From: Tubulanus polymorphus | Lineage: Eukaryota; Animalia; Nemertea | NCBI RefSeq assembly: GCF_964204645.1 | Contig: NC_134032.1 | Coordinates: forward strand, 6,932,275 to 6,996,274 | DNA length: 64,000 bases | Direction of reading: 5' to 3' | Shown here: piece by piece, positions 28,536-64,000 of the stretch | Position numbering within the stretch: the stretch's first letter is position 1 | How the letters are laid out: each line of letters opens with the position of its first letter | Made by a program: the position numbers and the translations under genes | The notes under the pieces: model-generated | Told to the model about the DNA's origin: nothing | The model's database searches: none | Seen by the model: the letters and a program-made list of their open reading frames with translations, nothing else

Positions 28536-28539
28536 AAGA

Positions 28540-32780: not shown

Positions 32781-34355
32781 TTTATTAGCTTTTGAATAAT
32801 TAGGCCAATTAATAACGTAATAAAGACTTATGCTTTCGCCTATTTTGAAGTCGATTAATCTGATATAGTACGGAAGCGATAAAGGGCCTCGAGTTGTCGC
32901 GTTCAAACTCGACAAGTCGCCATATTTATGTCGATATATCGCGATATATCGCGTCAAGTCCACATGAATATGTCTACAATCGTGACGTTTTCACAACAAA
33001 TTTCGCTTTTTTGCTCATTTTCCACGGGACAAGCCGTCATTTGAAGACATGTCTAAATGTAAGATGAGGGCGCTAGTAATATGACGACTGAGTTTCAAGT
33101 CGTCATGAATATGTCGACTTGTCGCGAGAAAAATGGTCGAGAAAACGAAATATGTCGTCAAAACGTCACAATATATCGACATATTCATGTCGACTTGACG
33201 CAATATATCGCGGTATGTCGACATAAATATGGCGACTTGTCGAGTTGGAACGCGACATCTCGAGGCCCCTTATCGCTTCTTTAGCTTTTGAATAATTAGG
33301 CCAATTAATAACGTAATAAAGACTTATGCTTTCGCCTATTTTGAAGTCGATTAATCTGATATAGTACGGAAGTGATAAAGGGCCTCGAGTTGTCGCGTTC
33401 AAACTCGACAAGTCGCCATATTTATGTCGATATATCGCGATATGTCGCATCAAGTCAACATAAATATGTTGACATATCGTGCTGTTTGACGACTTGAAAC
33501 TCAGTCGTCATATCACTGGCGTCCTCATCTTTCAGCAACGCCAGTCACATGGAGTCGCACGTGTTCTACTTTCTGCGACGCGACACGACTGTCACAACCA
33601 ACCGACGCGCTCTTGCGACTGGCAGAAACTATTTGCACACAATCGTATTGCAACCGACTTGCACCGAAACTTGCGGTGCAACGCAAGGATCGCCTCGTGT
33701 CACAAGACCAACTTACGTCTGGATTTAAGTTACTGCGGAGCACCAGAAATATTTTTTTTTTCGTTCAAAAGACCTTTCGCTTGAAAATTCTTTCGTCGGA
33801 ACAAAATTTATTTCGTTCGAACCAATAATATTCTATACGATTGAACCAATTTGAAAAAATCGTAAGAACAAAGTTGAACAAACTTTTTTTTGTCCAAACG
33901 AAAGGTTTTTCGTTCGAACAATCGTTCAATTGAACAGAATCTTTTTTAATTTGAACAGAATTTTCTTGTCAGAACATTAAGTTTTTCGTTCGAACAAGTA
34001 TATTGAAAAAAGTTTTTTCTCCGAACCGAAAGTATGAACTATTTCGTTCAATCGAACAGAATTGTTTTCATTCAAACATTCGTTTGAAAAAATTGTTTTC
34101 GCTCGACCAAATTTTTTTGCCGGGACTAAAAATTTTTCATTTCAACTATAACATAGCTTTTTATTTGAACACATTTTTTGTCAGAATGAAGAAAATTTTT
34201 GGTTCAAGCAAAAAGCGTATTGTTCGATCAAACAGAATTAGTTTCATTCGAACAAGATTTTCTTGTTGGAACATTAAGTTTTTTGGTCGAACAGCGTGTT
34301 AAGGTCGATTTGGAAATTTACTCGGTCTGGTATATGTTGGATTACTGTGTATGTT

Positions 34356-34474
34356 AGTAATTAGAAGATGGCGTTTTCATACCAGAGGACGAGAGGACGA
34401 GACACCACTCATCACCACAAGTAATTTTTGTTTTCCTACTCATCACCACAAGTAATTTTTTTTCCTTATAAATG
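34356..34474 (+). repeat. Left terminal inverted repeat
   Basis: Outer 74 bp identical to the reverse complement of 48103-48176; similarity continues to the pPolB ATG; two copies of ACTCATCACCACAAGTAATTTTT. Confidence 0.95.
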
Positions 34475-36915
34475 GGGGAGAATGAACACCAACCAGAAAA
34501 CAATAATGTCAATAAAAATCAATATTATTGTCAATATTGTAAAAAATACATCGATACATCTAATAAAACACGACATGAAAAAACTGCAAATCATATAAAA
34601 AATGTAATAGATTTTGAAACTCCAGAAAATTCCAATGAAAGAAAAGAACGATTAGAAAATATGAATGTGAATGAAATAAAATGTGAAGTTTGTGATGAAT
34701 TTATAACAAAAAGGAATTATAATAGACATCTCGAAACAGAAAAACACCATCAAAATTTGAGAAATAATGTTTTAGGAATAGATTATTTTGATGATAAACC
34801 TCAACAAGTAAAAGAATCAACTTCAAAAACTAAATCCATTTCAAATAAACCTTACATGGAAAATGTTAGAAATTATATTGATTCACTAGAAATAAAAGAT
34901 ACAATTGAAATCTTAGAAACATTACATAGTAACGTTGGTCCTGCAGCTATTATATTTAGATTTTTTAAAGGTACAACAATAGAAGATTATAGTAAATTTA
35001 ATGAAATAATAGAAAAAATACTAGATTTGATAACAGATGTTGAATATCCAAAAATTAGTATCTCTGGGAAAGTAAGTTTTTTAAAGTCAGAAGAAAAAAT
35101 GAATTATAATATTCAAACACACTCTGAAGAAATAATTTCAAAAACACAAATAAAAGAGAAGTTAGAAAAAATATTAAATGAATTTAAACGTCATATTGAA
35201 GAAAGATATTTTGAGGGTTCTGGCTTAACATTGAATGAAATTATATATTTAGATTTAAATGTTTATAATACAAAAAGGAATAAAACATCAAAAAGTAATA
35301 AAATGTTTAAAAATGATTCAAACTTTACAACAGAAAAGGATATGAAAGCATCAAGTTATATCAAATTACCGTTTACAACAAAAGCAGTAATAAATATTCA
35401 AAATGAAGATAATAAATGTTTTCTATGGTCAATTATTAGTTGTTTACACCAAACAGAAGATATGACGCATAGTTTTAGAATAACAAATTACCGGAAATAT
35501 GAAACATTATATAAAATTGATCAATATCCAGTAACTATAAAAATGATTCCTAAAATAGAAAAAATTAATAATTTAAAAATAAATGTATTCGAATTAATGC
35601 AATTACCAAAGACAAAAGGTGAAAATATTAAAGATTATACATTGGAAGCTTTATATTTAACAGAATATTATGATGACGAAAATGCTATAGATTTGTTATA
35701 TTATAAAAAAGATGAAAATGAACATTATATGTGGTTAAAACAAATTGATTTATTCTTTAGAACAGAAAGTGATTTTAACAACCATAAAATTTATCTATGT
35801 AGAAAATGTTTATCTAAATTTAGAACTGAGAATGCGTTACTAAAACATAAAGAATTATGTGATATTAAAGATTTTTGTAAATTAATAATGCCAGCAGAAA
35901 AAGATTATAAATTGAAATTTACTAATCATAAATTTAAAAATATTGTTCCATTTGTAATTTATGGGGATTTTGAATCATGGATGTTATGAAATCATCAGCA
36001 GTTTATAGAATACTTGTAAATAATCCTAAAGATTTTGCTATAGAATATAATGATGAATTCTATATTCATGCAATAGTGAAAAGTAATACTTCAACTAAAG
36101 AAAAAATAGTACCAGATTATATATTAAATTCAGAATATAATCTTAGAAAATGGTTCTTCATTGGGTTCTACGCAGCCGATGGTACTAAAAAATTTATAAA
36201 GAATAAAACGATAACCTTTGCACAGAAAGGAAAATGTGCAATAAGTGGGTTAAATGTGTTATGCAGTTCATTAGGCTTCAATATGAATATTGGATTGATT
36301 AAATCTAAACCAAATTGCTTTAATTTAAGGCATGTAGAAAAAGATTTAACTGAAGAAGTTAAAGATTTATTTGAAATATATAACCCAACTGACTATGTTT
36401 ATGATTTATCAACAGATGATGGAACATTCAATTCTGGGTTCCCATTAATCCAAAAAAATACTGACGCCTACATACTAAAAATCAAGACAAATGACATAAC
36501 AAAAGACTTAAAAACATTAAAACATTATTTTGATTTTAGCAATTATCCTAAAGATCATGAACTATTTAGCAATGATAATAAAAAGATTCCTGGTAAGTTT
36601 AAAGATGAATTAGGAGGTGATGAAATGATTGAATTTGTTGGGATAAGAAGTAAAATGTATAGTTACAGAACAAAAGATCATGAAGCTAAAAAGTTAAAAG
36701 GAATAACAAAACATGTGGTTGATAAACATATAGAATTTCAAGATTATATAAAGTGTTTATATAAATCAATTGTAATGAAACACAAGATGAATTGTTTAAG
36801 ATCAGAAGATCATGAGATGTACATTAATGAAGTTGAAAAAACTAGTTTAAATCCATTTGATGATAAAAGGCATATTTCAGATGATGGTATAAAAACATTA
36901 CCTTATGGTTATTAA
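34472..36915 (+). pseudogene. Protein-primed DNA polymerase B (pPolB) with a large internal deletion
   Basis: N part: two C2H2-type Zn fingers, EGSG, NEDNKCFLWSI...HY (OTU-like protease module), Exo I YGDFES. C part: TDAYIL (motif C half), GKFKDE, RSKMY, KLKGI, LNPFDDKR, TLPYGY. Most of the exonuclease and motifs A and B are missing; junction at ~35975. Confidence 0.92.
35974..36459 (+). mobile_element. C-terminal half of an intein with a LAGLIDADG homing endonuclease, inserted in pPolB motif C
   Basis: FFIGFYAADG (36154-36183), block F YVYDLST, terminal LIQKN (Asn codon 36457-36459) followed by +1 Thr-Asp. Confidence 0.85.
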
Positions 36916-38209
36916 AATGGATCTATATCATCAAACTCGAAATCACTATTGGCTTCTTCATTTTCATTTAATTGTTCAGGTTCTTCTTCCATTCCATTTT
37001 TCTCATTTAAATAAAGTTCTATCTTGTTCCACATTTCATCTCGCTCTCTTTGTTTCTTTTTGTTTGTTAATTCATCAAATGGAATTATAATATCTAGGTT
37101 TAAATAATTTACAATCTTATTTAAAAAGAATTCATAATTTATTGAATCTGTTATTCTATTTTCCAAATAATACATAAATATTTGTTTAAATATTTTTTTT
37201 ATATTTTCCATATCTTCTTCTGTTAATTTAGGTTTTTCATAATAATCGTTAGATAATAAATATAAATACATTTTCTTTTGTTTTGTGTTAAATGTTGGTG
37301 GAATAATTGTTTTTATAATATCTTTTTTAGTTATTTCACCATTTTTATTTTCTATTATTTTCATTTTTTCAAGCCATTGCATATATTCTGGTGTATGATC
37401 TTCTATAGAAAATATTTTAAAAATTTCATCTAGATAATTTAATTTTGGTTCTATGAGAAAATCTCTAGTTTTTTCTTCACCCCATAAATTCTTTTGCCAT
37501 CCACATTCAACACAAAATAACACAGTACCTTCTTGCCTTAAGGTCGCATAACTACATTGTGGGCATTTTTGTTTATAATTTCTTGGTAATAGATCTTCAT
37601 TAAGCTCTTGGTATTTTCTTACGTTTTCTTTATGTTTTATTGTTCTATTATGTAGATTTGAATTACTTGTTGTAATAATCAATTTACAATATTTACAATA
37701 ATATGTTTTTCTTGTTAATTCATTATATTGTTTTTCTAACTTTTCAACTGTTTCTTTATTATCTGGTAACGTTTTCTCATATTTTATTTTTTCTAATAAA
37801 TTATTTTTTCTTTCATTGAATTCAGTTTCAAATTTATTAGAAATTTTATCTATATGTGCTTTACGAAATTGATGATTCTCCCAATCTTCTATATTTTCAG
37901 GGCTATATTTTACTTGACAAGGCTCACAGAATGATCTTTTATATTATCCTTATCATAGAATAAGAAAGGTCTTTTCCAAATAACTTCAGGTTCAACTTCA
38001 GCAGAATTACTATCAACATTAGCCGTTGCGCCATTAATTCTACACTTCTCTGAATGTTTTTTAACATAATTTCTTGAGAATAATTTATTACATTTTGGAC
38101 AGTTTATTTTAGGGGGTTTATAATTTTCATCATGTTTTTTCATATGTCGAGCCATATTACTTTTTCTTAGAAGTTCACCACAAATTTCGCATGCTATCTT
38201 CTCATCCAT
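36912..38209 (-). pseudogene. Multi-Zn-finger protein with a C-terminal poxvirus VLTF3 (A2)-like domain; one 1-nt frameshift at ~37944
   Basis: ORFs 37910-38209 and 36912-37682 join because the second frame is open up to 37943; four C2H2-type fingers, then Zn ribbon CPQC-x13-CVEC, PKLNYLDEIF, IKKIFKQIFMYYLEN...SINYEFFLNKI, EMWNKI. Confidence 0.75.
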
Positions 38210-38277
38210 TTATTAAGGAAAAATTTTATTAAAATTAATTTTTAGTGATGAGCGGTAATTTTTTTATGTTATAAATA

Positions 38278-39030
38278 ATGGTAGAATTAAAAGAATACAG
38301 AATATTTGTTGATTCTAGAAAACTTACAAATTATAAATCTCATAATTTACTAGTACAATTAGATAGAGAATTCAAGAATTGTGTAGATTTAAAATTAGTT
38401 AATATAAGTTTATGTAATTCTTTTTATAATATATCGGATAAAAGTCTAGAACATTTAATTTTTTCAATCTTTTACAAAAAAAGGAATAAATGGTTTTTTA
38501 TATACTTAAAACCAGGATTATATCATTTAGATACATTAACACAAGAAATTAATAGAAAAGCTCGAGCTAAATTAGGAAGTGATTCCGGATTTAGTATTAG
38601 AATTTTAAAAAGTGCTAGTTCTAATAAAATAAAGATTAGGTTAGCTAATGACGAACAATTTAAATTTACAATAGCTAAACTATTAGGAATTGCACCAGAT
38701 ACCGTTACAGCATACGCAGAAGGTAACTCAAACTCAAATATAATACCTTTTACACACTTTTATATTTATTGCAATTTAATCGATCCTACAAAAACATTTG
38801 AAGCAACTAAAGATACAATTTGTAATTCTGGTTTATTAAATATTTTACCATTAAAAAATGTCAAACAATTTGGAACTCAAATAAATTATAATTTAACTGA
38901 ATGTGATTTCAAACCTTGTATTCCACATTTCAATAATTCTAAATTAGAAATAAGAAATCATAATGGTTATTTAATTGATTTGAATAACTTTCCTGTAATT
39001 TATGAATTAGTTATAAGATGTAAAGAGTAA
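38278..39030 (+). CDS. Minor capsid (penton, single jelly-roll) protein
   Basis: IFVDSR N-terminus, LKPGLY, FYIYCNLI, LLNILP, LEIRNHNGYLIDLNNFPVIYELVIR, typical of Polinton minor capsid proteins. Confidence 0.8.
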   Translation: MVELKEYRIFVDSRKLTNYKSHNLLVQLDREFKNCVDLKLVNISLCNSFYNISDKSLEHLIFSIFYKKRNKWFFIYLKPGLYHLDTLTQEINRKARAKLGSDSGFSIRILKSASSNKIKIRLANDEQFKFTIAKLLGIAPDTVTAYAEGNSNSNIIPFTHFYIYCNLIDPTKTFEATKDTICNSGLLNILPLKNVKQFGTQINYNLTECDFKPCIPHFNNSKLEIRNHNGYLIDLNNFPVIYELVIRCKE

Positions 39031-39046
39031 TTTTTCACCTATATAA

Positions 39047-39386
39047 ATGAATATAACTGTTGGACCGAGTATATGTTTTGGATTTGATTTTAAACATGGT
39101 AAAGAAATGAGAATTAAACTAAATGACGTAATTACTGATATAAAAAGTAAATCATTTAACAATGTGTCAATGATTGATAAAGAAAAGTATAATATAGAAA
39201 AAGTAATTGATTTAATTAAATCACCTTTTGGAATATTATGAATTAAATGAAGATGGAATTATTGATGATATCAAAAACATATTAACCAAAATATATGATA
39301 ATCATAAAACTAGTAATGAAATAAATGTTGAATTAATCATAAATAAGTTAACTAAATATTTTGAAGATAGTAATTTTTTTGATTAA
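39047..39386 (+). pseudogene. Hypothetical protein, probable frameshift at ~39230
   Basis: ORF 39047-39241 continues in another frame (EYYELNEDGIIDD...) to TAA at 39384-39386; ATAAATG start. Confidence 0.55.
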
Positions 39387-39389
39387 TAA

Positions 39390-39611
39390 ATGAGTGATAA
39401 TAAGTGGATAATAACTGGATTATATAATGGCGCATTACTATCAGTTGGAACTGTTGGTTATTCAATGGTATTAAAAAAAGTATTCAAAATGGGAAGTGTT
39501 AATGTTGATAGATTTGATATAAATGATATTCTAAAATTAACATTAGCAGTTACTTTATCGAATTTAACTATTGATTATTTGGAAAAACAAAAATATATTC
39601 CTCCCATATAA
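39390..39611 (+). CDS. Small hydrophobic (membrane) protein
   Basis: 73 aa, two hydrophobic helices, ATAAATG start. Confidence 0.7.
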   Translation: MSDNKWIITGLYNGALLSVGTVGYSMVLKKVFKMGSVNVDRFDINDILKLTLAVTLSNLTIDYLEKQKYIPPI

Positions 39612-39635
39612 ATACATAATTATTTTACTAAATAA

Positions 39636-40058
39636 ATGGCTTCTGCAATTATAACTATTATAGGATCAGCAATTGTTAACGCTTTAGCATTTACTGGTGG
39701 TGGTTATTTATTTAAACATATTGATAAAAATAGTTCATTAGGAGAACAAAGAAGACATAACTTAGCATTAGAGAAATACAATAAAGCTGCAGAAGAATAT
39801 AGAGAAAAGAGACAAAACTATATGGATTACATCAATAAAGAATTATATGATCAGAAGATTTCACACAGAGATTTTCAATCAGTTGATGATGCAATGAGTT
39901 TATATAACGCAGTAACAAATAAAGAAAAATTACATCTATACAAACCTAAATTATCAGATTATTATACCCCGAGTAAAGAACAACAGAAATATGAAATAAT
40001 ATGGATTTTAGGTGGAACTGTTATTGTTATATTTGTTGCTTATAAGTTTACTAATTAG
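39636..40058 (+). CDS. Membrane protein (N-terminal Gly/Ala hydrophobic helix, coiled coil, C-terminal TM)
   Basis: MASAIITIIGSAIVNALAFTGGG...IIWILGGTVIVIFVAYKF. Confidence 0.75.
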   Translation: MASAIITIIGSAIVNALAFTGGGYLFKHIDKNSSLGEQRRHNLALEKYNKAAEEYREKRQNYMDYINKELYDQKISHRDFQSVDDAMSLYNAVTNKEKLHLYKPKLSDYYTPSKEQQKYEIIWILGGTVIVIFVAYKFTN

Positions 40059-40077
40059 TAATTTTTATTCTAAATAA

Positions 40078-40512
40078 ATGGAAGATAAAGTTGATAGTAT
40101 TGATATTATTCCTCATGATATAAATAAAACTAAATTAAAAACATATTTAGAAAAACAAATATTAGAATTTGAAAGTGACTTAAAGATAAAAAAGAAAAAA
40201 TATTTAAAAAGTAAAATTATATATTATTTGATTATAAGTAGTTCGGTTACAATTAGTTCTGTAATAACATTTCTAGCAATATTCAGCCCATTAACACCTT
40301 TAGCTATATCAATTGGTGTGTTAGGATTAAGTTCAAGTGTTTTAACTGGTATAAGTTCAAAATTAAATATAAAAAGTAATAAAGAAAAAATCAAAACTAA
40401 TATAAAAGAAATTAATAAATTAAAGAATACACTAGATTATATAATAAGTTTAAATGGTCATATAACAGTTGAAGAACAAGATGAATTATTAAAAGAATTA
40501 ATAAATTATTAA
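40078..40512 (+). CDS. Two-TM coiled-coil protein
   Basis: Hydrophobic hairpin IIYYLII...AIFSPLTPLAISIGVLGL. Confidence 0.7.
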   Translation: MEDKVDSIDIIPHDINKTKLKTYLEKQILEFESDLKIKKKKYLKSKIIYYLIISSSVTISSVITFLAIFSPLTPLAISIGVLGLSSSVLTGISSKLNIKSNKEKIKTNIKEINKLKNTLDYIISLNGHITVEEQDELLKELINY

Positions 40513-40528
40513 TTTTTTAATTATATAA

Positions 40529-41917
40529 ATGGTAGATAGGTTTCCAAAAGCTTTCCGATATAATAAATCAATTAAATATAATATTCCAGCAATAGATTTT
40601 AATAAAGATATTACATATAGAAATGAAGTTTTAGATTCATTAACTAATTTAGAAATTTATGTTACTGAAACTAATAATTTTAATGCAAAGATGGAAAATA
40701 TATTTCATATATATTTAATTAATTTTAAAAAATTGAAAGATGAAAAACAATGGTTATTAAAATCTAATATGAAGTATTGGCAGAACCAATTAAATTTTGC
40801 TTTTTATTGTGCAACAACAGGATGTGGAATTAGTTGGAATGATCATTTGAATAATTCTAAATATAAATTAATTCAAAGTTTATTTAGATTTCATACATAC
40901 TTTCAAATAAGAATAATATTAAATGAATTAGAGTGCGCTTTACCAGGATCTAGGTATTTCAAAGAATTAGATAATAATATTAATTTATCAAAGTTTTATA
41001 AAATTTGCAATGAATTTAATATAGATATAAATAATTCTGATTTTAGAACAAAAATTGGAACAATAAGATCACTTCCATGCCCTAGAAAGATTGCAGAATA
41101 TTGTGCACTTCCCATACCATCTAATAGCTTTTATAATATCTATAATAAAAAATTAGGTTATGGTAAAATAGAAACAAAAGATTTAGAAACATTAAATTTC
41201 AATAAATTACCAAAATTTTATGATAATTTAAAACAAGAAAACAATAATGGTTGGGTATATTTTATTTTAGAAAATAGTGAAGGTTTTACTAAATCAGGTA
41301 TAGAAAGAATAAATCAATCTATTGGAACTTATTTGATATGTATTCTAGGATCACAAGTTGAAACAAGATCACCGATAATTGGAAATTTGAATACATCATT
41401 TGATACACAAAAACAATTTAAAGTTTTATTTGAAGATTCAATTCATAATGATAAAAATAGATCGATTCCAGAAAACATTATAAGATATCAAAATTATTTA
41501 GATAAATCACATATTAGATTAAATTATTGTATAGGCCCTAATCTATTAATTATTTCTAATGATTTAGTATTAAAGATGGGAAATATAATTGGTTATAATA
41601 ATCTAATTAAAACTGCGACAATAAATAATTCATTTGGATTAAATGATATAAATAAAAAGATTATTACTGCTCCAAAATTAATGGAAGGTGAAAAAAATAA
41701 AAAACACATTCAATCAACTGAAACTAAAACTAAGAATATTAAATTGGATAATGATTTCAAAATAAAAGATTACAATACATCAGAAAATAATAGAACTGAT
41801 AAAATTCAACATGATATAATTAAACTAAATGATGATAATAAATCCCATGAAAATACTAAATTAGCTATAACTTGTATAGGAATTGTAATCGGAGAAATAT
41901 TATATTTTAAATTTTAA
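40529..41917 (+). CDS. Hypothetical 462-aa protein with C-terminal hydrophobic anchor
   Basis: Long intact ORF; motif YWQNQLNFAFYCATTGCGISW; function not recognised. Confidence 0.75.
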   Translation: MVDRFPKAFRYNKSIKYNIPAIDFNKDITYRNEVLDSLTNLEIYVTETNNFNAKMENIFHIYLINFKKLKDEKQWLLKSNMKYWQNQLNFAFYCATTGCGISWNDHLNNSKYKLIQSLFRFHTYFQIRIILNELECALPGSRYFKELDNNINLSKFYKICNEFNIDINNSDFRTKIGTIRSLPCPRKIAEYCALPIPSNSFYNIYNKKLGYGKIETKDLETLNFNKLPKFYDNLKQENNNGWVYFILENSEGFTKSGIERINQSIGTYLICILGSQVETRSPIIGNLNTSFDTQKQFKVLFEDSIHNDKNRSIPENIIRYQNYLDKSHIRLNYCIGPNLLIISNDLVLKMGNIIGYNNLIKTATINNSFGLNDINKKIITAPKLMEGEKNKKHIQSTETKTKNIKLDNDFKIKDYNTSENNRTDKIQHDIIKLNDDNKSHENTKLAITCIGIVIGEILYFKF

Positions 41918-41933
41918 TTTTTTTATTATATAA

Positions 41934-43373
41934 ATGGATGTAGAAGGTGTAGAAGATATTGGAATGGATCCTTTTGATGAACCTGGTATAACTGATGAAC
42001 AACCACCTGATTTTGATGAAACAAGTTTTAATGATGGTAATGAAACAGCATATAATTCTAATTTAACTACACCCCAATTTATTGACAAAGCACGTTCAAA
42101 GATAAGTATTGAAAATGAAGTACCAGAAATAACAGAAAAAGAATACAATTATAATGAAATTATTCATGATTTTAAACCAATGTTAAAAAAATCTGGTTTC
42201 AATATATCAAATAAAGGTATGGATCATTTAGTAGAAGATTTGAAATATTTAAATGGTGAATATTATTGGAAATTGAAAGGTGACTATTATTTTAAGATTT
42301 CAAATCTTAAAAGTAGTGATAAAATAATAACACAATCAACTTTTAATTTATTAGAACAATCTAGAATTAAGAAAATCAATAATGATGTTATAACTGATGT
42401 TACAGAAAAAGAAAGATCTGATAATTTAAAAGAATTTAAACAAAGAAATGCTAAATTTTTTAAGATAATTAATGAAAATTTAGAAACAGAAACAACTTCT
42501 GAACAGAATATAATTTCCAAAACTAGTAAACTTAAATCAAATAAAGTTCCAATTGAAAAACTTTTACCGAATGGATTAATTGATGCAACAGATCAAGAAT
42601 TAGAAGATTTAGATATATTTTCTGATAAAGCAATTAGAGAAATTATTAGTATAAGACTTGCATCTAATAAAATTGCGCATGATAAAAGTATAAGAGATTT
42701 TAAAATTAGAACTTTAGAAAAAGAATTAACTGATAAAAATAAAGAAATAGAACAATTAAAGTCTGATTTAGATCATCAAGCAATTGATGAAATAGAATAT
42801 AGGCAAAAAGAGTTACGTTTAGAAAAAGAAAAAGATGATTTAGAATATAACATAGAATTACAAAAAGAAGAAATTAAATTATTGTTAAAATCATATGATT
42901 ATAATATTAATAGATTAAAAGTTATTTTTAAAGATTTGTTGATTAAACCAAATTCTGAAATATCATTAAAAGATAGAATAAAGTTATTATTTAAATTAGA
43001 AGGAATAACAATTCTTTCAATTCTAACAGCTGTAACTATGTTATTTACAACAATAGGTTTAGCTATATCAAATTCACTGAAATCTACTCCTACTCCAAAT
43101 AAACCAGATAAACCTCCAGGCAATAATTCTATACAAGATAAAGTTAAGGATGGTTTAAAGAAATTAGCAAAATATTTATGGGAACTATCTAAAAAATCTG
43201 CTGCAGCATTGCCAGGAGTTATTGCATCAATTGTTGGTTTTATATTGAAATCTGCAGGTAATATTCTTAACTTTGCTGCTGAACATATAATTTTATTTTT
43301 AATCACAGTTGTAAGTGCTATTATTTTCGGGTTAGTAAATATGATATCAAAAAGATATCAAGAAAAAAAATAA
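41934..43373 (+). CDS. Coiled-coil membrane protein (acidic N-terminus, multi-helix hydrophobic C-terminus)
   Basis: 479-aa intact ORF; heptad region then GITILSILTAV...LPGVIASIVGFIL...IILFLITVVSAIIFGL. Confidence 0.75.
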   Translation: MDVEGVEDIGMDPFDEPGITDEQPPDFDETSFNDGNETAYNSNLTTPQFIDKARSKISIENEVPEITEKEYNYNEIIHDFKPMLKKSGFNISNKGMDHLVEDLKYLNGEYYWKLKGDYYFKISNLKSSDKIITQSTFNLLEQSRIKKINNDVITDVTEKERSDNLKEFKQRNAKFFKIINENLETETTSEQNIISKTSKLKSNKVPIEKLLPNGLIDATDQELEDLDIFSDKAIREIISIRLASNKIAHDKSIRDFKIRTLEKELTDKNKEIEQLKSDLDHQAIDEIEYRQKELRLEKEKDDLEYNIELQKEEIKLLLKSYDYNINRLKVIFKDLLIKPNSEISLKDRIKLLFKLEGITILSILTAVTMLFTTIGLAISNSLKSTPTPNKPDKPPGNNSIQDKVKDGLKKLAKYLWELSKKSAAALPGVIASIVGFILKSAGNILNFAAEHIILFLITVVSAIIFGLVNMISKRYQEKK

Positions 43374-43407
43374 TAAAAAATAAATAATTAATTTTTTTGT
43401 TTAATAA

Positions 43408-44655
43408 ATGAGTGGGAGTTATAGAAGTCCTTCAAAGATTTCTAGAATATCTAATGCTATTAAAGCAGAAAGATCACATCATATAATTACTCATAACCCT
43501 TCAAATATTAATCCCGATGAAACTTTATATGTTAGAATCCCTCGATTAACACAAAATACTTTTTATGTTCCAAATAGTATTTATTTATCAGCTGATATAA
43601 AAGTAACTGGCCATGATAACAATTATGTTGTTGATAATGTTGGAAGATATTTGATTAAAAAATTAACTATAAAGATTGGTCCGGAAACAGTTTTCTCATT
43701 AGATGATTATAATTTATTTATGTATTATAAAGATTTATGGTTAACTAAAGAAAATAGAAATAATATGATATTTCAAGGCATCCAATCGGAAAACCATAAT
43801 AAATTAAGATCTGAAGCCAATAATGCAGTAGTAACTCGTGCCACAGATAATTTGATTAAAAAGATTTATGGAAGCAAATATAAAATTCCATTAGACTTTG
43901 AATTGATAAATAATAATGCACCTTTATATAAATACGCAATTCAAGAAGATATTATATTTGAGATAACATTTGCTCCTGTAAATGAAATTGTATTATCTAG
44001 CGTTGTTAAAGATATGGGTTATAAATTATCGAATATATGTTTAGAATATAACACAGTAACTAATGAAAATATTGCTAGCACAATTCAAACTCAATACAAT
44101 CAAGGATCTTCATTATTATATGATTATATTGATAAATTTAAAACTGTAACTATTAATGCAAATGATGAAATAATTAATGAGAATATTAACTTTCCTAGAA
44201 GATCTATTAAAGGTATATTAATATTTTTTACTATTGCAACATATTCTAATGGCGCAATAAATGTTGATAATTATTATAATCCTGAAATAACAAAAGTAGA
44301 AATAACTATCGAAGGAATAGCAAATAAAATATTTTGCCAAGGAATGAGAATGATAAACCAATGGCCAGAAATTAGAAAACATTTTATGAATGAAAAAGTA
44401 AAATCATTTGAAAATTGTAACATTAATCAAATTGATTATTATACCGGTAATAAATATGCATTATGGTTAGATTTTAGAACAACAGAGGATAATTCATTAC
44501 ATGGTTCTGGGAAAAAACTACAAAATACAAAAGATGGAATACAATTATTCATGAAAAAGAAAAAAGGAAGCTTAAATTTTAAAATGCATATTTATATTAT
44601 ATCTGACGCACAATTAAATATTGTAAATTCTCAATTAGATAGTATTCAATATTAG
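43408..44655 (+). CDS. Major capsid protein (double jelly-roll)
   Basis: 415 aa, beta-rich; NPSNINPDETLYVRIP, KYKIPLDF, IIFEITFA, NINFPRRSIKGILIFF, YALWLDFRT; size and position fit an MCP. Confidence 0.8.
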   Translation: MSGSYRSPSKISRISNAIKAERSHHIITHNPSNINPDETLYVRIPRLTQNTFYVPNSIYLSADIKVTGHDNNYVVDNVGRYLIKKLTIKIGPETVFSLDDYNLFMYYKDLWLTKENRNNMIFQGIQSENHNKLRSEANNAVVTRATDNLIKKIYGSKYKIPLDFELINNNAPLYKYAIQEDIIFEITFAPVNEIVLSSVVKDMGYKLSNICLEYNTVTNENIASTIQTQYNQGSSLLYDYIDKFKTVTINANDEIINENINFPRRSIKGILIFFTIATYSNGAINVDNYYNPEITKVEITIEGIANKIFCQGMRMINQWPEIRKHFMNEKVKSFENCNINQIDYYTGNKYALWLDFRTTEDNSLHGSGKKLQNTKDGIQLFMKKKKGSLNFKMHIYIISDAQLNIVNSQLDSIQY

Positions 44656-44685
44656 AAATATAAAGTTAAAATTAAGGATATATAA

Positions 44686-45813
44686 ATGAGTGGTAAAAAA
44701 ACTCCTAATACTAAAGAACAATATTTAAGAAATTTATATTACAACCCTGAGAGTTCGGTTGCTTATTCTTCTACTAAAAATATATGGCGTAAAGTAAAAC
44801 AAGATAAATTAGATAAGATAATCCCACAAAATTTAGTTAAATATAAAGATATAAATGAATTTATGTTAGAACAACCAACGTATACAACACATAAAAAAAT
44901 TGTTAGAAAATATAAAACTCGTAAAACTATGGTAAGTTATGTAGATCAACAGTGGCAAGGAGATTTAATTGATATGAAAAATGTTAAGAAAGATAATGAT
45001 GATTATTGGTGGTTATTGAATATAATTGATATTTTTAGTCGTTATGTATGGAGTTTCCCACTTTATAGAAAAGATGCTGTACAAACATCAAATGTTTTAA
45101 GAAAATTTCTTTCAGGTGGTAAACTAAAACCAGAAAAAATTCAATTTGATGATGGAAAAGAATTTGATAATTCATTAGTTCATGGACTTTTAGATTTTCA
45201 TAATATTAAATATTTTTCGACAAAATCGGATAAAAAAGCAGCAGTTGTTGAACGATTTAATAGAACATTGAGAACAAGAATGTCAAAATATTTCACAGCA
45301 AATAATACTTATAAATGGATTGATGTTTTACCAAAATTTATAGAAGGATATAATAATTCTTATCATTCTTCTATTGGAATGAAACCTATTGATGCTAGAA
45401 AACCTGAAAATGCTGAAATTGTTTGGAATAATTTATATGGAGCATTTCTTGTTGATGATTTTGGTGAACCTAAATTTAAAGTTGGTCAAAATGTTAGAAT
45501 TTCTAAGTATAAAAAGATATTTGACAAAGGATACGATCGAAATTTTACTAGAGAAATATACAAAATAAAAAAGGTAATAACAACAAAACCATATGTCTAT
45601 AAATTAGAAGATTTAGATGGTGAAGAAGTTGATGGCTACTTTTACGAAGAAGAATTAAGTTTAACTACTGAAAATCTAGAACAAGAATATAAAATTGAAA
45701 AAGTACTAAAAACAAAAACTGTTAAAAGAAAAAAATATTCTTTAGTGAAATGGGTTGGATGGCCAGATAAATTCAATGAATGGATATTATCAAGTAAAAT
45801 TAAAAATATATAA
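44686..45813 (+). CDS. Retroviral-like (rve) integrase with C-terminal chromodomain
   Basis: WQGDLIDM, IDIFSRY, QFDDGKEF, VERFNRT (DDE); YKIEKVL...VKWVGWPDKFNEWI. Confidence 0.95.
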   Translation: MSGKKTPNTKEQYLRNLYYNPESSVAYSSTKNIWRKVKQDKLDKIIPQNLVKYKDINEFMLEQPTYTTHKKIVRKYKTRKTMVSYVDQQWQGDLIDMKNVKKDNDDYWWLLNIIDIFSRYVWSFPLYRKDAVQTSNVLRKFLSGGKLKPEKIQFDDGKEFDNSLVHGLLDFHNIKYFSTKSDKKAAVVERFNRTLRTRMSKYFTANNTYKWIDVLPKFIEGYNNSYHSSIGMKPIDARKPENAEIVWNNLYGAFLVDDFGEPKFKVGQNVRISKYKKIFDKGYDRNFTREIYKIKKVITTKPYVYKLEDLDGEEVDGYFYEEELSLTTENLEQEYKIEKVLKTKTVKRKKYSLVKWVGWPDKFNEWILSSKIKNI

Positions 45814-46418
45814 ATGAATAAGGAATTATTTATATTTGAGCCTCATAATATGTTAATTTCTGGTGTAACAAATTGTGGAAAAACTTATTTTATATTAAAT
45901 TTATTAGAAACTGTTTATGAAAACTATTTTGATAATATAGTATTATTTTGTCCAACATATGAATTTAATCAAACTTATGATAGAAATATTACTAGAAATA
46001 ATAAATTTATTATATTAGATCCTAAAACAGTAAAAGAAAATTTAGATAATTGTATAAAAATAGCAATTGATATTTATAAAGGATCAAATACATTATTTAT
46101 CATAGATGATTGTGCAAATTTACATGATTCTAAAATTAGAGAAAGCGAGTTATGTTATTTAGCTTTCTCTGGAAGACATTTTGGGATAACAACTTGGGTT
46201 TTAAATCAAAAATATAATTCAATTGTTAAAGATTTTAGAGAAAACATTAGATTTCTAGTTTTATTCTACAATATAGAAAATCGATGAAAAATGCACTTGA
46301 GGAAAATGATATTATTCCATATGATTTACATAATGAATATATGGATAAGTTGAAAAATATTAAAAGATCAAAATTACTATTTAGATTACAACACCCATTT
46401 AAATATGAATTTATTTAA
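45814..46418 (+). pseudogene. A32/FtsK-like genome packaging ATPase; frameshift near 46270
   Basis: Walker A GVTNCGKT, Walker B FIIDD, SGRH, NQKY; an alternative frame (RKSMKNALEEND...) runs to TAA at 46416-46418. Confidence 0.9.
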
Positions 46419-46419
46419 A

Positions 46420-46681
46420 TTCAACTAGCTTGTTAATCTAATTGAATTCTAGTTGAATTCTAGTTATTGGTAGTTGTAACAAAAATCAAATAGATTTAAC
46501 AATATTTTAACTAGCTTGTTAATCTAGTTTAATTCTAGTTATATTCTAGTTGAATTCTAGTTGTTAGTAGTTGAAACAAAAATCAACTAGATTTAACAAG
46601 AAATAAACAAAAAACAACAATATTTCAACTAGCTTGTTAATCAATTTGAATTCTAGTTACATTCTAGTTAAATTCTAGTTG
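46420..46681. repeat. Internal non-coding iteron-like repeat block
   Basis: AACTAGCTTGTTAATC three times (46423, 46509, 46627), each followed by 11-bp-spaced ATTCTAGTT subrepeats. Confidence 0.8.
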
Positions 46682-46714
46682 CAACATCACACAATTAATT
46701 TTTTTGTTATATAA

Positions 46715-47319
46715 ATGGGAGGTGAAAAGAAAATAAAATCTAAAAATGGTGATGTTCCAATTGAAAAAACTTTAGATGATTTAGGAATAACAGAAACAAA
46801 ATTAACTCCAGATGATGGTGCTTTAAATATTGTTACAACAAATAATAATTATGAATATTATCTTTATTGTAAACATCAATTAGAAATATTAATAGCATCT
46901 GGAAAATGTAAAAATTTTATCGGTAAAAATTTAACTTATAATGAATTAGACACAATGAAATCAGATGAAATTATTAGATTATTTAAGATTTATGAAGCCG
47001 CGAGAACAGCTAAAATCAATGACGCGATATCAGAAAATGTAGTAAAAGGTTATAGTAAATTATGTAATTATATACTACCAATTGAAGATGAAAATAGATT
47101 ATATTCCGAATTAAAAAATGATTATTTAGTTATGACTGAATTAAATAAGTGGATTGGATATTTATCATTCAATTAGGTGGATTTATGACATTATTATCAA
47201 CCGGGGTTATAACATTTTCAAATATTGAAAGTAAAAATATTTCTATAATAAATGAGCGAAGTGAAAGAAGTGAAGGAATTAACTGTGAAGAAAAAACCGA
47301 GAACTCAGAAACAAATTGA
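46715..47319 (+). pseudogene. Conserved hypothetical protein (homologue of 62776-63378); 1-nt deletion at ~47170
   Basis: Shares IEKTLDDLGI, YEYYLYCKH, LKNDYLVMTEL; restoring TTT CAA TTA GGT gives ~201 aa, matching the 200-aa homologue. Confidence 0.85.
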
Positions 47320-47623
47320 ATGGTCTCGACAATTAGGAATTAAATCACAAGAATATAAAAAAGCTGTAAAAGAAAAAATAAGTAATAAAAATGTTAATAA
47401 AAATGGTGAAAATATTGTTATTTCTACTCCTTCTGATAGTAGAATATTTGATAAATATCTATATTTTACAGTTGGATTTGTAATTGTATTCATTTTGATT
47501 GGGTGTAATTGGTATAAGAAATCAAATAAAATTCATGATAGTAATAATTCTGAAACAACTGCTATCAAAAATGAAAATACTTCTGAAATTCCAAAATTGA
47601 TAAAAATATTTTTTTTAAATTAA
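47252..47623 (+). CDS. Basic N-terminus / single-TM protein (homologue of 63371-63769)
   Basis: KKKPRTQKQIEWSRQLG vs KKKARSEKQIKWARELG; central TM. Confidence 0.8.
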   Translation: MSEVKEVKELTVKKKPRTQKQIEWSRQLGIKSQEYKKAVKEKISNKNVNKNGENIVISTPSDSRIFDKYLYFTVGFVIVFILIGCNWYKKSNKIHDSNNSETTAIKNENTSEIPKLIKIFFLN

Positions 47624-47626
47624 TTG

Positions 47627-47691
47627 AATATCTCACTACTTTTGTCTATCTATGTGGAGCAATTAAATTGTCCAGATAAGTCATTTCGGAT
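47627..47691. ncRNA. Conserved structured non-coding element (copy 1)
   Basis: Near-identical to the reverse complement of 62461-62529 except in the hairpin region, which shows a compensatory change. Confidence 0.55.
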
Positions 47692-47733
47692 TCTAGATAT
47701 TCATTATTTCTATTAATTTATTTTTTTTAAAAT

Positions 47734-48060
47734 TTAATCAACAATTTCTAAATCATGATGACCGTCTTCATTTTTCCCATGATATATTATTTTAAATCCT
47801 ACTAAATCTTTCAATTCCTCCGTACTCAATGAAACCCATTTATCGGGTAAAAACACTTTAAATTCTCGCGATGTACTAACATTACAGTAGCTTAAATTAG
47901 CTAATACTTTCTCTCCATATTTAGTTTTTATCTTTTCTAATTTCAATATTTTATGTTCAATTTCTTTTGTAACATCAACTAACTTTTTTATTTCAAATTG
48001 TTTTTTTGCTGGTTTTATTCTGTTATTTATTGTTGCTAAGAATGCTTTTCTATCTCCCAT
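47734..48060 (-). CDS. Small protein starting inside the right TIR, possibly an OB-fold ssDNA-binding protein
   Basis: 108 aa; KTKYGEKVL...KVFLP; ATAAATG start; function is inference. Confidence 0.65.
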   Translation of the reverse strand: MGDRKAFLATINNRIKPAKKQFEIKKLVDVTKEIEHKILKLEKIKTKYGEKVLANLSYCNVSTSREFKVFLPDKWVSLSTEELKDLVGFKIIYHGKNEDGHHDLEIVD

Positions 48061-48176
48061 TTATTAGGAAAAAAAATTACTTGTGGTGATGAGTGTTAGG
48101 AAAAAAATTACTTGTGGTGATGAGTGGTGTCTCGTCCTCTCGTCCTCTGGTATGAAAACGCCATCTTCTAATTACT
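48058..48176 (-). repeat. Right terminal inverted repeat
   Basis: Reverse complement of 34356-34474. Confidence 0.95.
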
Positions 48177-60278: not shown

Positions 60279-60358
60279 CTTAAAATATTCATATATATGA
60301 ATAACATTTAAATCATTGAACTTCTAAAATCAATTTTAATAAAAAATATAGTATTAAA

Positions 60359-60685
60359 ATGGAAGCAAATAAGTACTACTGCCCAACATGTAATATCGAT
60401 ATAGATAAATCCCAAAAAGCAAGACACAATAAAACTAGAACACATTTAGAGAATAAATTGAAACTAGAATATTTACAGTTATATTCAGAACAGTTAACAA
60501 AGGGAAAGAAATTTATTGAATTATAGAATAATGATCCAAATAATGAACAATACGTTGAGGAATTTGATATCAAGGAATCGAAACAACTTATCAAAAGCAG
60601 CGAGGAATGAAAAAGGATGACGTTGGTCGAAGAAATGGAAGAGGATTCTAAAATGTTAACCAATTTAGTAAAAAAATACGTATAA
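60359..60685 (+). pseudogene. C2H2 Zn-finger protein with two in-frame stops
   Basis: YYCPTCNIDIDKSQKARHNKTRTH, similar to the first finger of element-1 pPolB. Confidence 0.65.
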
Positions 60686-60688
60686 TAA

Positions 60689-61339
60689 ATGGAACCAGAA
60701 CAACCACAAATTATCAATATTACAAATAACACTGGCGTTATAAACATATACTACAAGAAGTGTTCTAAATGTGAATTAGATAAATCATTAACAGAATTTA
60801 GTAAGCGTAAGATTAGCAAAGATGGTTTTCAATATTGCTGTAAAACTTGTTTTAAACTATACACCAAACAATACCGAGAAGATAATATAGAACATTATAA
60901 TTATTATATGGCAGAATATATGAGAGAAAGATATCAAACAGATCTTAATTTTAGATTGAAACAATGTTTACGGTCTAGATTAACACAATTATTCAATAAA
61001 GAAACACATTCAGAAACATTATCTAATTTATTGGGTTGTTCAGATGAATTTCTCATATCATGGATAATATATCAATTCGATGATAAAATGAATATAGATA
61101 ATTATGAGGAATACTTTCATATTGATCATGTGTTGCCGATTTCTAAATTTAACATGAATGATGAATACAATAAAAAACTTATTTGGGGTTGGAGAAATTT
61201 AAGGCCTCTTGAAAAGAAAGAAAACATAATTAAATCTAATAAACTAGATATACAGTTATATTTAGATCAACTGGATAAAGCAAAGACATTTGTTGAATTA
61301 TGGAATTCAACACATAATGAAAAATACGTTGAATGTTAA
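60689..61339 (+). CDS. HNH-family endonuclease (giant-virus type) with N-terminal Zn ribbon
   Basis: KKCSKC...KDG...CKTC; FHIDHVLPIS...WRNLRPL...NIIKSNK. Confidence 0.8.
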   Translation: MEPEQPQIINITNNTGVINIYYKKCSKCELDKSLTEFSKRKISKDGFQYCCKTCFKLYTKQYREDNIEHYNYYMAEYMRERYQTDLNFRLKQCLRSRLTQLFNKETHSETLSNLLGCSDEFLISWIIYQFDDKMNIDNYEEYFHIDHVLPISKFNMNDEYNKKLIWGWRNLRPLEKKENIIKSNKLDIQLYLDQLDKAKTFVELWNSTHNEKYVEC

Positions 61340-61733
61340 ACGCTTAGAAAACCGGTTACTCTCGATCTATGTCAAACCGCCTATATTTAATTGTATTAGG
61401 TTGTTTACAAAAACATCTGCGCCGTATTTCATATTCAGTTGAATGGGGCGCACCTCATTTGAATATTGATCGAACGTGCTATTTCAGTTGAAAAGGATTA
61501 ATCAATTATATTACAAAAGAAGGAACATCTGTTGCACCAGATGGTGTTAAGCTAGTGAATAACTACCAGTTATAAACGCGCAGCACATAAGCATAGGAAC
61601 GTATTGGATATTCTCTCTCAAAACACAGTTTACAGTTCTAAATCTAAATGTAAGTAAATATATTATGAAGTAGGGAAACCTTTAAACATATTTAAGTACA
61701 GTAATTCATTTTCACGATATCTTTTAGATTAAA

Positions 61734-62006
61734 ATGGAACACAAAGATCGACCAGAAATTCTAAGCCAACCAACGTATGAGGAACCAGAAACGATAGATA
61801 GTGAAACTCAGGAATCAATAGAAATGGAGGATGAAACTCTCGTAATTGACGAACAAACTTCACAAACATTACAAGAACATTTGGACTATCATCAAGAAAT
61901 GGTGAAAATTCTGAGTGATGTAATACATAATAAACAATTACCGCGCGAACTACAATTACCAAAATTACCAGCAACGCGACTTAAATTGCTGTTGGGACTC
62001 AAATAA
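61734..62006 (+). CDS. Hypothetical acidic protein
   Basis: 90-aa ORF with TTAAAATG start, inside element 2. Confidence 0.4.
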   Translation: MEHKDRPEILSQPTYEEPETIDSETQESIEMEDETLVIDEQTSQTLQEHLDYHQEMVKILSDVIHNKQLPRELQLPKLPATRLKLLLGLK

Positions 62007-62460
62007 TCGAGAACTAAGAAAAAGAACATAGATATCAGTGCCGGTTTTGAAAGAAAACTGAGAAGAGTAGGTAGATTAATAAAATATGAAAAATTCAAAA
62101 TATTAGGATTAGCATTTAGTGAAGTAGTAAGACATTTACCAGAAATTGAAGAAATGATTGGAAACAATCCAGTAATTAAAGAATTCTGGACAAAATTATA
62201 AATTATAATACTGAAGGTCTTTGTAATATAGATATCAAAAAATGTAATCTCGATTGTATATATCTGTTTTAATATTGTATTGTTTACTGTTAACTAAGTA
62301 TTGCGCAATAACCGGTCCGATTGAACCGCTTTTCTATTGTTCTCCATTGTTCTATTATCGATCGCTAAAATTTACATAATAAATATATGTGTTTATGAAA
62401 TTAGATTTCCACCAGTCGTTTCTTTGAATTTATTTTCAGTTTGAGGATTTATTATCGAGG

Positions 62461-62529
62461 ATCCGAAATGACTTATCTGGACAGTTATAATTACTGCTCC
62501 TAATAGATAGACAATAGTAGTGAGATATT
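62461..62529. ncRNA. Conserved structured non-coding element (copy 2)
   Basis: Reverse-complement match to 47627-47691. Confidence 0.55.
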
Positions 62530-62775
62530 AAATCCTAATTTAAATAAAATATAATAAAAAAACAATAACTTCAACTAGCTAGTCAATTCTATTATATTTT
62601 CAATATTTTCTTTTGGTAATTCTAATTGACATTAGATTGAATAGATTTTGAATAGATTTGAATAGAAATTCTTTAACTTTAACTAACCTAGTCAATTTAG
62701 TATTAACCTAAAGAGATACTAGTATCATTTGAAGAATATTTATAATATTTTTTTTGCTTTTTTCCTCTAATATAA

Positions 62776-63378
62776 ATGTCAAAGAAATCTAATAAGAATA
62801 GTATTGATATTGAAAAAACATTAGATGATTTGGGTATTAGTGATAATAAAGATACAGTTGTTTCTAATTCTATTCAAGTTAATAACAATATAGATTATGA
62901 ATACTATTTATATTGTAAGCATCATATAGAACTATTGATTGCGAGTGGAAAAACTAAAGAGTTTATTGGTAAAACAATAACTTTTCAAGAATTAGATAAT
63001 ATGAATAAAGAAAAAGTAATAAAATATTTTAAGATTTATGAAGAAGCTCGATTAGCTAGAATAAATGATTCTATTTCAGATGGTATTGTAAAATGTTATT
63101 CTAAGTTATGTAACCAGTTAATACCAATTGATAATGAAAATAAATTATATAGTGATTTGAAAAATGACTACTTAGTTATGACTGAATTACAAAAATGGGT
63201 TGGATATGCTTCATTTCAATTAGGATCGGTTATGACATTGATTTCTACTGGCGTCATAACATTTTCGAATATCAAGCCTATGGAATATAAATCAGGTAAG
63301 AACGAAACAGATGTACTACAACCAAACAGTGAAACAGAAAATGAATCAGAACAAAAATTAACTAAAATAAATGAGTGA
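62776..63378 (+). CDS. Conserved hypothetical protein (homologue of 46715-47319)
   Basis: Intact 200-aa ORF with extensive identity to the element-1 gene; T-run plus TATAAATG start. Confidence 0.85.
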   Translation: MSKKSNKNSIDIEKTLDDLGISDNKDTVVSNSIQVNNNIDYEYYLYCKHHIELLIASGKTKEFIGKTITFQELDNMNKEKVIKYFKIYEEARLARINDSISDGIVKCYSKLCNQLIPIDNENKLYSDLKNDYLVMTELQKWVGYASFQLGSVMTLISTGVITFSNIKPMEYKSGKNETDVLQPNSETENESEQKLTKINE

Positions 63379-63769
63379 TGGAGTTAAGAAAAAGGCTAGA
63401 TCCGAGAAACAAATTAAATGGGCAAGAGAATTAGGTAAAAGATCATCAGAATTAAAAAAAGCTAAGAAAAAGAAATTAACTGATATAAATGAATCACAGA
63501 CTTTATCTGATGGTGCCGTACAGCACCCACACGGTGGTATTGATTCAAATAATAATCCATCTAATTCTTCTAATGCTGGAAGTAATTATAAATTATATAT
63601 TACAATTGGATTAGTAACAGTTATTATATTATCCGGTGTAATATATAAATCAAAATTCAAATCTGATGATAAAGATGATTCCAATGACAATCGGAAACAT
63701 ATTATACCAGAAAATAAGTCAAATCATAAAGTCATTGAAACTAAATCTAAATTATTATTAATGGATTAA
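63371..63769 (+). CDS. Basic N-terminus / single-TM protein (homologue of 47252-47623)
   Basis: RSEKQIKWARELG; TM LYITIGLVTVIILSGVIY. Confidence 0.8.
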   Translation: MSDGVKKKARSEKQIKWARELGKRSSELKKAKKKKLTDINESQTLSDGAVQHPHGGIDSNNNPSNSSNAGSNYKLYITIGLVTVIILSGVIYKSKFKSDDKDDSNDNRKHIIPENKSNHKVIETKSKLLLMD

Positions 63770-63775
63770 AATAAG

Positions 63776-64000
63776 ATGAAAAAAGAACAATATTTAAGAG
63801 ATTTATATTATAACCCAGAAAGTGAAGTATCATATTCTAACGTTTCAGAATTATGGAATAAAATTAAATCTGATAAAGAAAAAATAAAATATAGTGAATT
63901 AAAATCATGGTTACAAAATCAACCCACATATCAAATTCATAAAAAGATGGATAAAAAATATTTAACAAGAAAAGTAATGGTTTCATATATTGATCAACAA
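63776..64000 (+). CDS. rve integrase, N-terminal part (runs off the window)
   Basis: MKKEQYLRDLYYNPES...QPTYQIHK...TRKVMVSYIDQQ matches the 44686 integrase (KEQYLRNLYYNPES...TRKTMVSYVDQQ). Confidence 0.9.
   Translation, partial: MKKEQYLRDLYYNPESEVSYSNVSELWNKIKSDKEKIKYSELKSWLQNQPTYQIHKKMDKKYLTRKVMVSYIDQQ

Follow-up and report, generated by a model that had tools for sequence, protein, structure and literature searches.

Late promoters of vaccinia virus follow a plan in which a T-containing core is separated by 5-7 bp from TAAAT(G/A), according to PMC5294985, with TAAAT(G) lying across the start codon and, at the 10th nucleotide upstream, a T that is conserved (PMC11980589). TAAAT is described as the start element and the template of the 5' poly(A) leader (PMC4542343), and its TAAA initiator as being recognised directly by the viral polymerase (PMC12917281). 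As for the intermediate promoters, they favour A upstream, and the vaccinia A32L gene is assigned to this class (PMC11980589). Here, a 64,000-nucleotide stretch from the nemertean Tubulanus polymorphus is analysed (NCBI RefSeq assembly GCF_964204645.1, contig NC_134032.1, forward-strand positions 6,932,275 to 6,996,274; hereafter the window), in which an integrated Polinton of 13,821 bp, element 1, carries a TAAATG-type motif at almost all of its gene starts. The motif is a lineage trait of one capsid clade, and it is probably a poxvirus-type post-replicative promoter of a virophage-like element that would depend on a pox-like cytoplasmic helper. Element 1 resembles vaccinia virus in the TAAATG over the start codon, the short spacer, the T peak at the 9th-10th nucleotide and the A-rich variant on the ATPase gene. 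Unlike vaccinia virus, it is a 14-kb integrated element without an RNA polymerase, its motif is found on nearly every gene, replication genes included, and TAA at -19 and A at -4 are common; the promoter function is here putative.

Several other described systems are close to this locus. Mavirus-type EMALEs carry the late motif of CroV (PMC8547959) and Gezel-14T (PgVV) the early motif of PgV (bioRxiv 2022.07.28.501842). Like element 1, these are integrating polinton-like elements whose genes share a start motif, which in their case matches a known helper; they differ in having protist hosts and mimivirus-type helpers and motifs (TCTA, AAAATTGA), whereas element 1 has an animal host, is a canonical Polinton with protein-primed PolB (pPolB) and integrase, and shows a motif of poxvirus type. 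Polinton-like viruses have been found in entomopoxvirus occlusion bodies and proposed as poxvirus parasites (Barth et al. 2024, PMC11296320), but they have insect hosts and divergent capsids, two of the elements are without a detected integrase, and the words promoter, motif, TAAAT and upstream have 0 occurrences in the main text of that article. The yeast pGKL elements combine a TAAAN initiator, 5' poly(A) leaders made by slippage and cytoplasmic transcription; they differ in encoding a polymerase and a capping enzyme of their own, in using an early-type upstream element, and in lacking capsid and integrase (PMC6211774). Animal Polintons/Mavericks (adintoviruses) share with element 1 the terminal inverted repeats (TIRs), the duplication of 6 bp and the genes for pPolB, rve integrase, A32 ATPase, capsid and VLTF3-like protein, but their other sampled lineages are without the motif (counts below). 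A VLTF3-like gene had already been reported from coral polintoviruses (PMC11131425). Neither promoter nor TAAAT occurs in the main texts of PMC11131425 and PMC8502044, and main-text term searches found promoter discussion absent from bioRxiv 2026.10.13.758929, the egovirus preprint, PMC11161782 and the nematode Polinton preprint. Literature searches covering main texts found no report of a TAAATG-type motif in animal Polintons. Promoter mimicry is known from protist virophages, and what appears to be new here is the combination of an animal Polinton with a signal of apparent poxvirus type.

The features of element 1, and of a second element at the end of the window, are as follows, each gene being given together with its motif.
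34350..34355, + strand: target-site duplication TATGTT, 6 bp, second copy at 48177-48182
34356..48176, no strand assigned: Polinton element 1, 13,821 bp, a defective member of a multicopy family
34356..34479, + strand: left TIR, 124 nt, first letters AG, holding the pPolB start motif
34453..36915, + strand: motif and pPolB gene, ATG 34472, with a large internal deletion near 35,980
36912..38228, - strand: motif and zinc-finger/VLTF3-like gene, ATG 38209, with a frameshift near 37,910-37,943
38256..39030, + strand: variant motif TAAATA, then ATG 38278 and putative penton gene (profile of related open reading frames (ORFs), 2e-6)
39028..39241, + strand: motif and ORF 39047, 64 aa against about 127 aa in the related locus L001
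39371..39611, + strand: motif and conserved small ORF 39390
39617..40058, + strand: motif and conserved ORF 39636
40059..40512, + strand: motif and SLATT-like two-helix membrane ORF 40078 (weak, E 0.001)
40510..41917, + strand: motif and conserved ORF 40529
41915..43373, + strand: motif and conserved ORF 41934
43389..44655, + strand: motif with T-rich core and major capsid protein (MCP) gene, ATG 43408 (Capsid_N weak, E 0.008)
44667..45813, + strand: motif with A-rich core and rve integrase gene with chromodomain, ATG 44686 (PF00665, E 8e-9)
45795..46287, + strand: motif with A-rich core and A32-like packaging ATPase gene, ATG 45814 (PF04665, E 6e-13), 157 aa against about 205 because of an early stop
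46696..47176, + strand: motif and conserved ORF 46715, 153 aa against about 200-219 because of an early stop
47232..47623, + strand: motif with A-rich core, TAA at -20, and ORF 47252
47734..48079, - strand: motif and 108-aa ORF, ATG 48060
48053..48176, - strand: right TIR, holding the start motif of the 48060 gene
60300..64000, + strand: element 2, a relative in decay that is cut off by the window end, left boundary approximate

The original prediction had placed ATAAATG on 14 of 15 genes of element 1, and all 14 starts were recovered at the same positions. ATAA-ATG (the hyphen marks the beginning of the start codon) is found at 14/15 gene starts, whereas among the remaining ATGs of the element it is found at 9/504 when both strands are counted (Fisher p 1e-20) and at 8/301 on the + strand alone, so the motif is indeed rare at internal ATGs. 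The fifteenth start, 38278, reads ATAAATAATG, as had been claimed, and its TAAAT lies three bases further upstream. Since the starts at 34472 and 48060 are one sequence, present on the two TIR arms, the independent count is 13/14. The T-run announced upstream of most starts is also real: TAATTTTT occurs between -40 and -5 at 10/15 starts and at 7/504 other ATGs, the spacing of the motif is fixed, and at four starts (38209, 44686, 45814 and 47252) the core opens with TAAAA instead of TAATTTTT. With regard to the phasing of the 14 starts, T is present at -19 in 13, A at both -18 and -17 in all 14, and T at -14, -13 and -12 in 13, 13 and 12. The TAA at -19 doubles as the stop of the upstream gene at three junctions, and it is also present where no gene ends, in the TIRs.

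The distribution of the motif among related loci was analysed from the capsid protein, which has 921 homologs located in Polinton-like gene sets and, with its weak Capsid_N match, is a putative double jelly-roll protein. An alignment of 40 capsid proteins (that of the window and 39 of 120 listed matches) was used as query, and the best 80 of 141 metagenome loci plus 2 from genome contigs were retained, which with the window makes 83 loci. In a quick maximum-likelihood tree of 57 capsid ORFs of at least 300 aa, the window capsid falls in a 15-row clade (SH-aLRT 98), to which two loci too short for the tree (L021 and L063) were joined by identity (49-58%). Considering ORFs of at least 100 aa, TAA-ATG is found at 66/79 starts in these 17 clade loci (GC 20-44%) and at 6/348 starts in the 66 others; in this comparison, which the original prediction had asked for, the motif is nearly absent from other Polinton lineages. 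It is kept at 24/28 starts in nine clade loci of GC 30-44% and found at 1/21 starts in six outside loci of GC 26-33%; since it is frequent in the GC-richer clade members and rare in AT-rich outsiders, it tracks descent and not base composition. The TAA-ATG motif is therefore a lineage trait of one capsid clade, with one exception inside it (L015, 0/2). A second count, restricted to ORFs of at least 120 aa in 14 clade loci (without L015 and the near-duplicates L003 and L011) and in 42 of the 66 outside loci, gave 58/67 for the clade against 0/14, 3/51, 0/102 and 2/96 for the other groups, and among the nine clade misses several are TAAATA variants or come from the interior of broken genes. Three sister loci (L014, L016 and L022) have no TAAATG and show TATA within 20 nt of the ATG at 10/14 starts, against 43/497.

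The anatomy of the motif was studied in 68 motif starts of ORFs of at least 60 aa from 14 clade loci, with 107 non-start TAAATG as control. The layout consists of a core of A and T only at -18 to -11, a short spacer and TAAATG, the proportion of G+C being 0-6% at -18 to -12, 34% at -9/-8 and 3% at -6 to -4. T is present at -12 in 60/68 and at -13 in 55/68 starts, whereas the non-start copies show it in 32/107 and 36/107. This T peak lies 9-10 nt before TAAAT, -13 being the 10th nucleotide, so that TAAATG over the start codon, a T at about the 10th nucleotide within a T-rich run and a short spacer occur together, as in poxvirus late promoters. Base -3 is T in 59/67 clade starts, whereas it is a purine in 10/14, 42/51, 71/102 and 65/96 starts of the four other groups (68-82%); tolerance of a T at -3 would be expected if that T is not in the mRNA. 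Besides, the core differs between genes: it is A-rich in the ATPase (5/5) and ORF 47252 (5/6) and T-rich in the MCP (10/12), 46715 (5/6) and 39390 (4/4). The correspondence of this split to intermediate and late promoter classes is only suggestive, because orthologues have a common descent and because in two loci the motif of the ATPase lies over the end of the integrase gene.

Thus the core of the poxvirus-late-type reading in the original prediction is supported, the motif being rare at internal ATGs and in other Polintons and the geometry being in agreement, and its two side arguments fail. The intergenic gaps had been considered scarcely long enough for promoters of RNA polymerase II (Pol II); the same-strand gaps are 16, 148, 24, 19, 16, 16, 34, 30, 0, 427 and 75 bp, the long ones coming after ORFs with early stops, but they discriminate nothing, as they are equally short in the motif-less L022. 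The poxvirus early terminator TTTTTNT had also been invoked, and its depletion in coding DNA (observed/expected 0.44-0.49) is largely general homopolymer avoidance (T5 0.57, A6 0.66, A7 0.36), the sister group being alike (0.44); it lies within 60 nt of 4/12 gene ends, where it is mostly the T-run of the next gene.

Element 1 is a Polinton, since rve integrase, A32-like ATPase, capsid protein and pPolB occur together, and TIRs and a 6-bp duplication are present as well. That it is integrated with this duplication follows from TATGTT at both ends and from the empty site, more than 2,000 reads of a same-species whole-genome shotgun (WGS) run joining 34349 to 48177 with a skip of 13,827, which equals 13,821 + 6. 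Host WGS reads that are 90-99% alike span 30/30 bins of the element, which indicates a multicopy family. From another five contig runs of the species, whose kind is uncertain, between 0 and 5 short pieces per run were obtained, which is evidence in neither direction. The GC content is 23.6%, against about 37% in the surrounding host DNA. On the host side, a GPCR has no more than two matches at E 1e-20 or better (63% and 42%), both in Tubulanus polymorphus, which fits a nemertean host. The copy is defective, showing the internal deletion of pPolB, the frameshift of the 38209 gene on the - strand and three ORFs shortened in comparison with L001. A Pfam scan of 17 element ORFs found no match to RNA polymerase or capping families, and no protease family that could represent an adenain-type maturation protease. 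The presence of the latter varies within the Polinton/Maverick family.

Helper dependence as such, whether on a poxvirus or on another nucleocytovirus, is judged highly probable. The more specific reading, in which the motif would be a poxvirus-type post-replicative promoter and element 1 a virophage-like dependent of a pox-like cytoplasmic helper, appears likely, and it is argued for by the phased motif and the limitation of this motif to one clade, the integration with a 6-bp duplication and the lack of a polymerase gene among the scanned ORFs. Several points weigh against it. All that goes beyond the sequence pattern is inferred, the motif carries little information and is rich in A and T, the likeness to vaccinia was judged from published text descriptions, and the loci counted are related, so that the counts are not independent. 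Besides, one locus placed outside the clade by MCP identity (L080) has TAA-ATG at 2/2 starts, the VLTF3-like gene is also present in L022 (E 3.6e-5), a locus without TAAATG, and AATAAA is not avoided in the coding DNA of the window (52 in 10,974 bp, observed/expected 1.07; with 0.97 in the AT-rich outgroup, its avoidance does not separate the groups). The helper was not found: 53 motif-pattern matches in IMG/VR were all single, with no contig enriched, and 13 IMG/VR loci were reached through the kinase and HNH-like genes of the clade; in neither set did any large virus bear the motif at the majority of its genes, and the highest proportion of TAA-ATG in the 13 loci (5/20) was that of a bacterial-looking locus. 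IMG/VR scans with the MCP, the MCP alignment, the VLTF3-like frame and the ATPase alignment found no relatives. To our knowledge, no poxvirus has been described from nemerteans. Finally, several giant-virus fragments from metagenome-assembled genomes show a similar A/T core with TATAA-ATG on single genes, so the family of the helper is not fixed.

These single starts of similar shape leave some room for the same helper dependence on another cytoplasmic nucleocytovirus, outside Poxviridae, with a late initiator reading TAAATG, which is nevertheless unlikely. Cytoplasmic large DNA viruses generally have a bipartite arrangement of A/T core and initiator, African swine fever virus (ASFV) being so described (PMC5294985), a TAAAN initiator is also present in the yeast virus-like elements (PMC6211774), and the TATA near the ATG in the three sister loci (10/14 vs 43/497) suggests helper switching; yet a strict TAAATG that takes in the start codon is regarded as a chordopoxvirus hallmark (PMC4542343), the T peak coincides with the vaccinia late-promoter position, and no large-virus locus examined in IMG/VR carries the motif on most genes. 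Somewhat less probable still is a compact nuclear promoter or translation signal specific to the element, which the Pol II or the ribosomes of the host would use, perhaps together with its zinc-finger/VLTF3-like protein, the pox likeness being convergent or the relic of a past helper. The integration in nuclear DNA in several copies and the VLTF3-like gene speak for it, as does a TATA-like word, TATAAATG, at 8/14 window starts. If the motif were a TATA box, transcription would begin some 25-30 nt into the ORF, whereas homologous N-termini begin at these very ATGs; T at -3 is contrary to the purine preference of all four other groups, L022 has the VLTF3-like gene without the motif, and stop-start coupling offers no explanation, as TAA is the upstream stop directly before the ATG at 1/14 starts. 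A compositional artefact of an element with 76% A+T was given almost no credit: TAAATG is certainly frequent in such DNA, with 107 non-start copies in 14 loci, but the motif heads 1.8% of the other ATGs of the same element, it persists at GC 30-44% and is missing from AT-rich outgroups, and its phasing is fixed, so that the count at other ATGs and the comparison of clade and outgroups refute this explanation. Among signals of other kinds that were weighed, neither a Kozak context nor a TATA box fits the motif, and nor does stop-start coupling or the TAAG late motif of baculoviruses.

If the helper is pox-like, the provirus would be largely silent in the nucleus, and on helper infection its DNA would get into the viral factory, where the intermediate and late factors and the polymerase of the helper would read core and TAAAT in the cytoplasm. 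RNA would start on the A's, with slippage adding a 5' poly(A) leader, so that there would be no templated 5' untranslated region and the T at -3 would remain outside the mRNA. Of the two core types, the A-rich one (ATPase, 47252) may be active at the intermediate stage, the T-rich one (capsid) at the late stage. Intact members of the family would then be replicated by pPolB, packaged by their own capsid and ATPase, and re-integrated by the integrase.

With regard to the individual genes, both pieces of pPolB can be aligned with pPolB-like frames from related loci. The 3' piece contains, before the Pol C motif, an intein-like remnant (35977-36460, + strand) with a weak LAGLIDADG match (E 0.0025) and no match to the intein family model, after which the homology to other pPolBs restarts exactly inside the YxD/TD motif. 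The VLTF3-like assignment comes from a 156-aa piece (PF04947, E 1.9e-6), the 343-aa frame not being reported at 1e-3, and in the relative P0160 both parts of the gene are joined in one ORF; the top matches in the Atlas are VLTF3 clusters (0.80, a lead only), a word-index search found no relatives, and a search of PDB sequences gave weak zinc-finger matches alone. The penton label at 38278 is that of the original prediction and is putative. ORF 48060 scores 0.88 as a phi29-type single-stranded DNA-binding protein, below the 0.9 line, which makes it a lead only. The sequence CTCATCAC occurs five times in element 1 (34408 and 34439 on the + strand; 38245, 48086 and 48117 on the - strand), with two copies per TIR and one between the VLTF3-like gene and its divergent neighbour. 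It is thus present 33-43 nt upstream of the VLTF3-like gene, of pPolB and of ORF 48060, and it is possibly a second regulatory site. An A+T-rich repeated stretch at 46420-46690, between the ATPase gene and ORF 46715, has related sequence at about 47,606-47,700 and in element 2 (62,453-62,552), and it could be a cis element.

In element 2, ATAAATG is present at 60689 (HNH-like ORF), 62776 and 63371, as predicted, which amounts to 3/6 of the candidate starts checked; the others read TAAAATG (60359 and 61734) and TAAGATG (integrase start, 63776). The HNH-like ORFs form a family with a conserved DHVLP (window 60689-61339, L002, L007, L008 and L021), each with TAA-ATG; we take them to be HNH-like, and they have no Pfam match. 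Clade member L001 carries a deoxynucleoside kinase gene under the TAAATG motif (10340-10981, - strand, PF01712, E 2e-31). Capsids 55% identical to that of the window (cluster P0045) are filed under several Bartonella sp. assemblies, in contigs of 0.5-1.6 kb; they are probably animal DNA in those assemblies, and they hint that the clade extends to terrestrial hosts. Outside the clade, an AT-rich outgroup (L020, L025, L056, L081 and relatives) shows AAA-ATG at 25/51 starts against 104/2232, which would be either an invertebrate Kozak context or a TAAAA-type initiator, and the TATA of the three sister loci recalls the ASFV late initiator as described in PMC5294985. The insertion site of element 1 is a high-copy host repeat, long 31-bp tandem arrays lie within a larger repeated unit at 27100-33000 and 49400-54700, and ordinary host transposons occur in the window (piggyBac-type transposase, 11736-12743, - strand; DUF1759, 55853-56761; retrotransposon gag, 59376-60014).

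The question at stake is how animal Polintons are expressed, as autonomous nuclear viruses or as helper-dependent ones, and a clade-wide promoter of apparent pox type hints, at the level of sequence, at dependence on a cytoplasmic large DNA virus in at least one canonical integrated lineage. Related to this, start-codon motifs could serve as a fingerprint of the helper of each Polinton lineage. In its widest form, which is put forward tentatively and with slightly more doubt than belief, the proposal takes one lineage of animal Polintons integrated in the germline to be endogenous virophages that depend on poxvirus-like viruses and carry a two-class poxvirus promoter code (intermediate-like and late-like). 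Infection would wake them, as it does mavirus in protists; they may protect the invertebrates that harbour them and may reveal undiscovered pox-like viruses of marine invertebrates, and the sister lineages of TATA type would use other helper families. Dependence on a pox-like helper would predict a pox-like virus in a host group from which we know of none, and it would extend inducible endogenous virophages from protists to animals.

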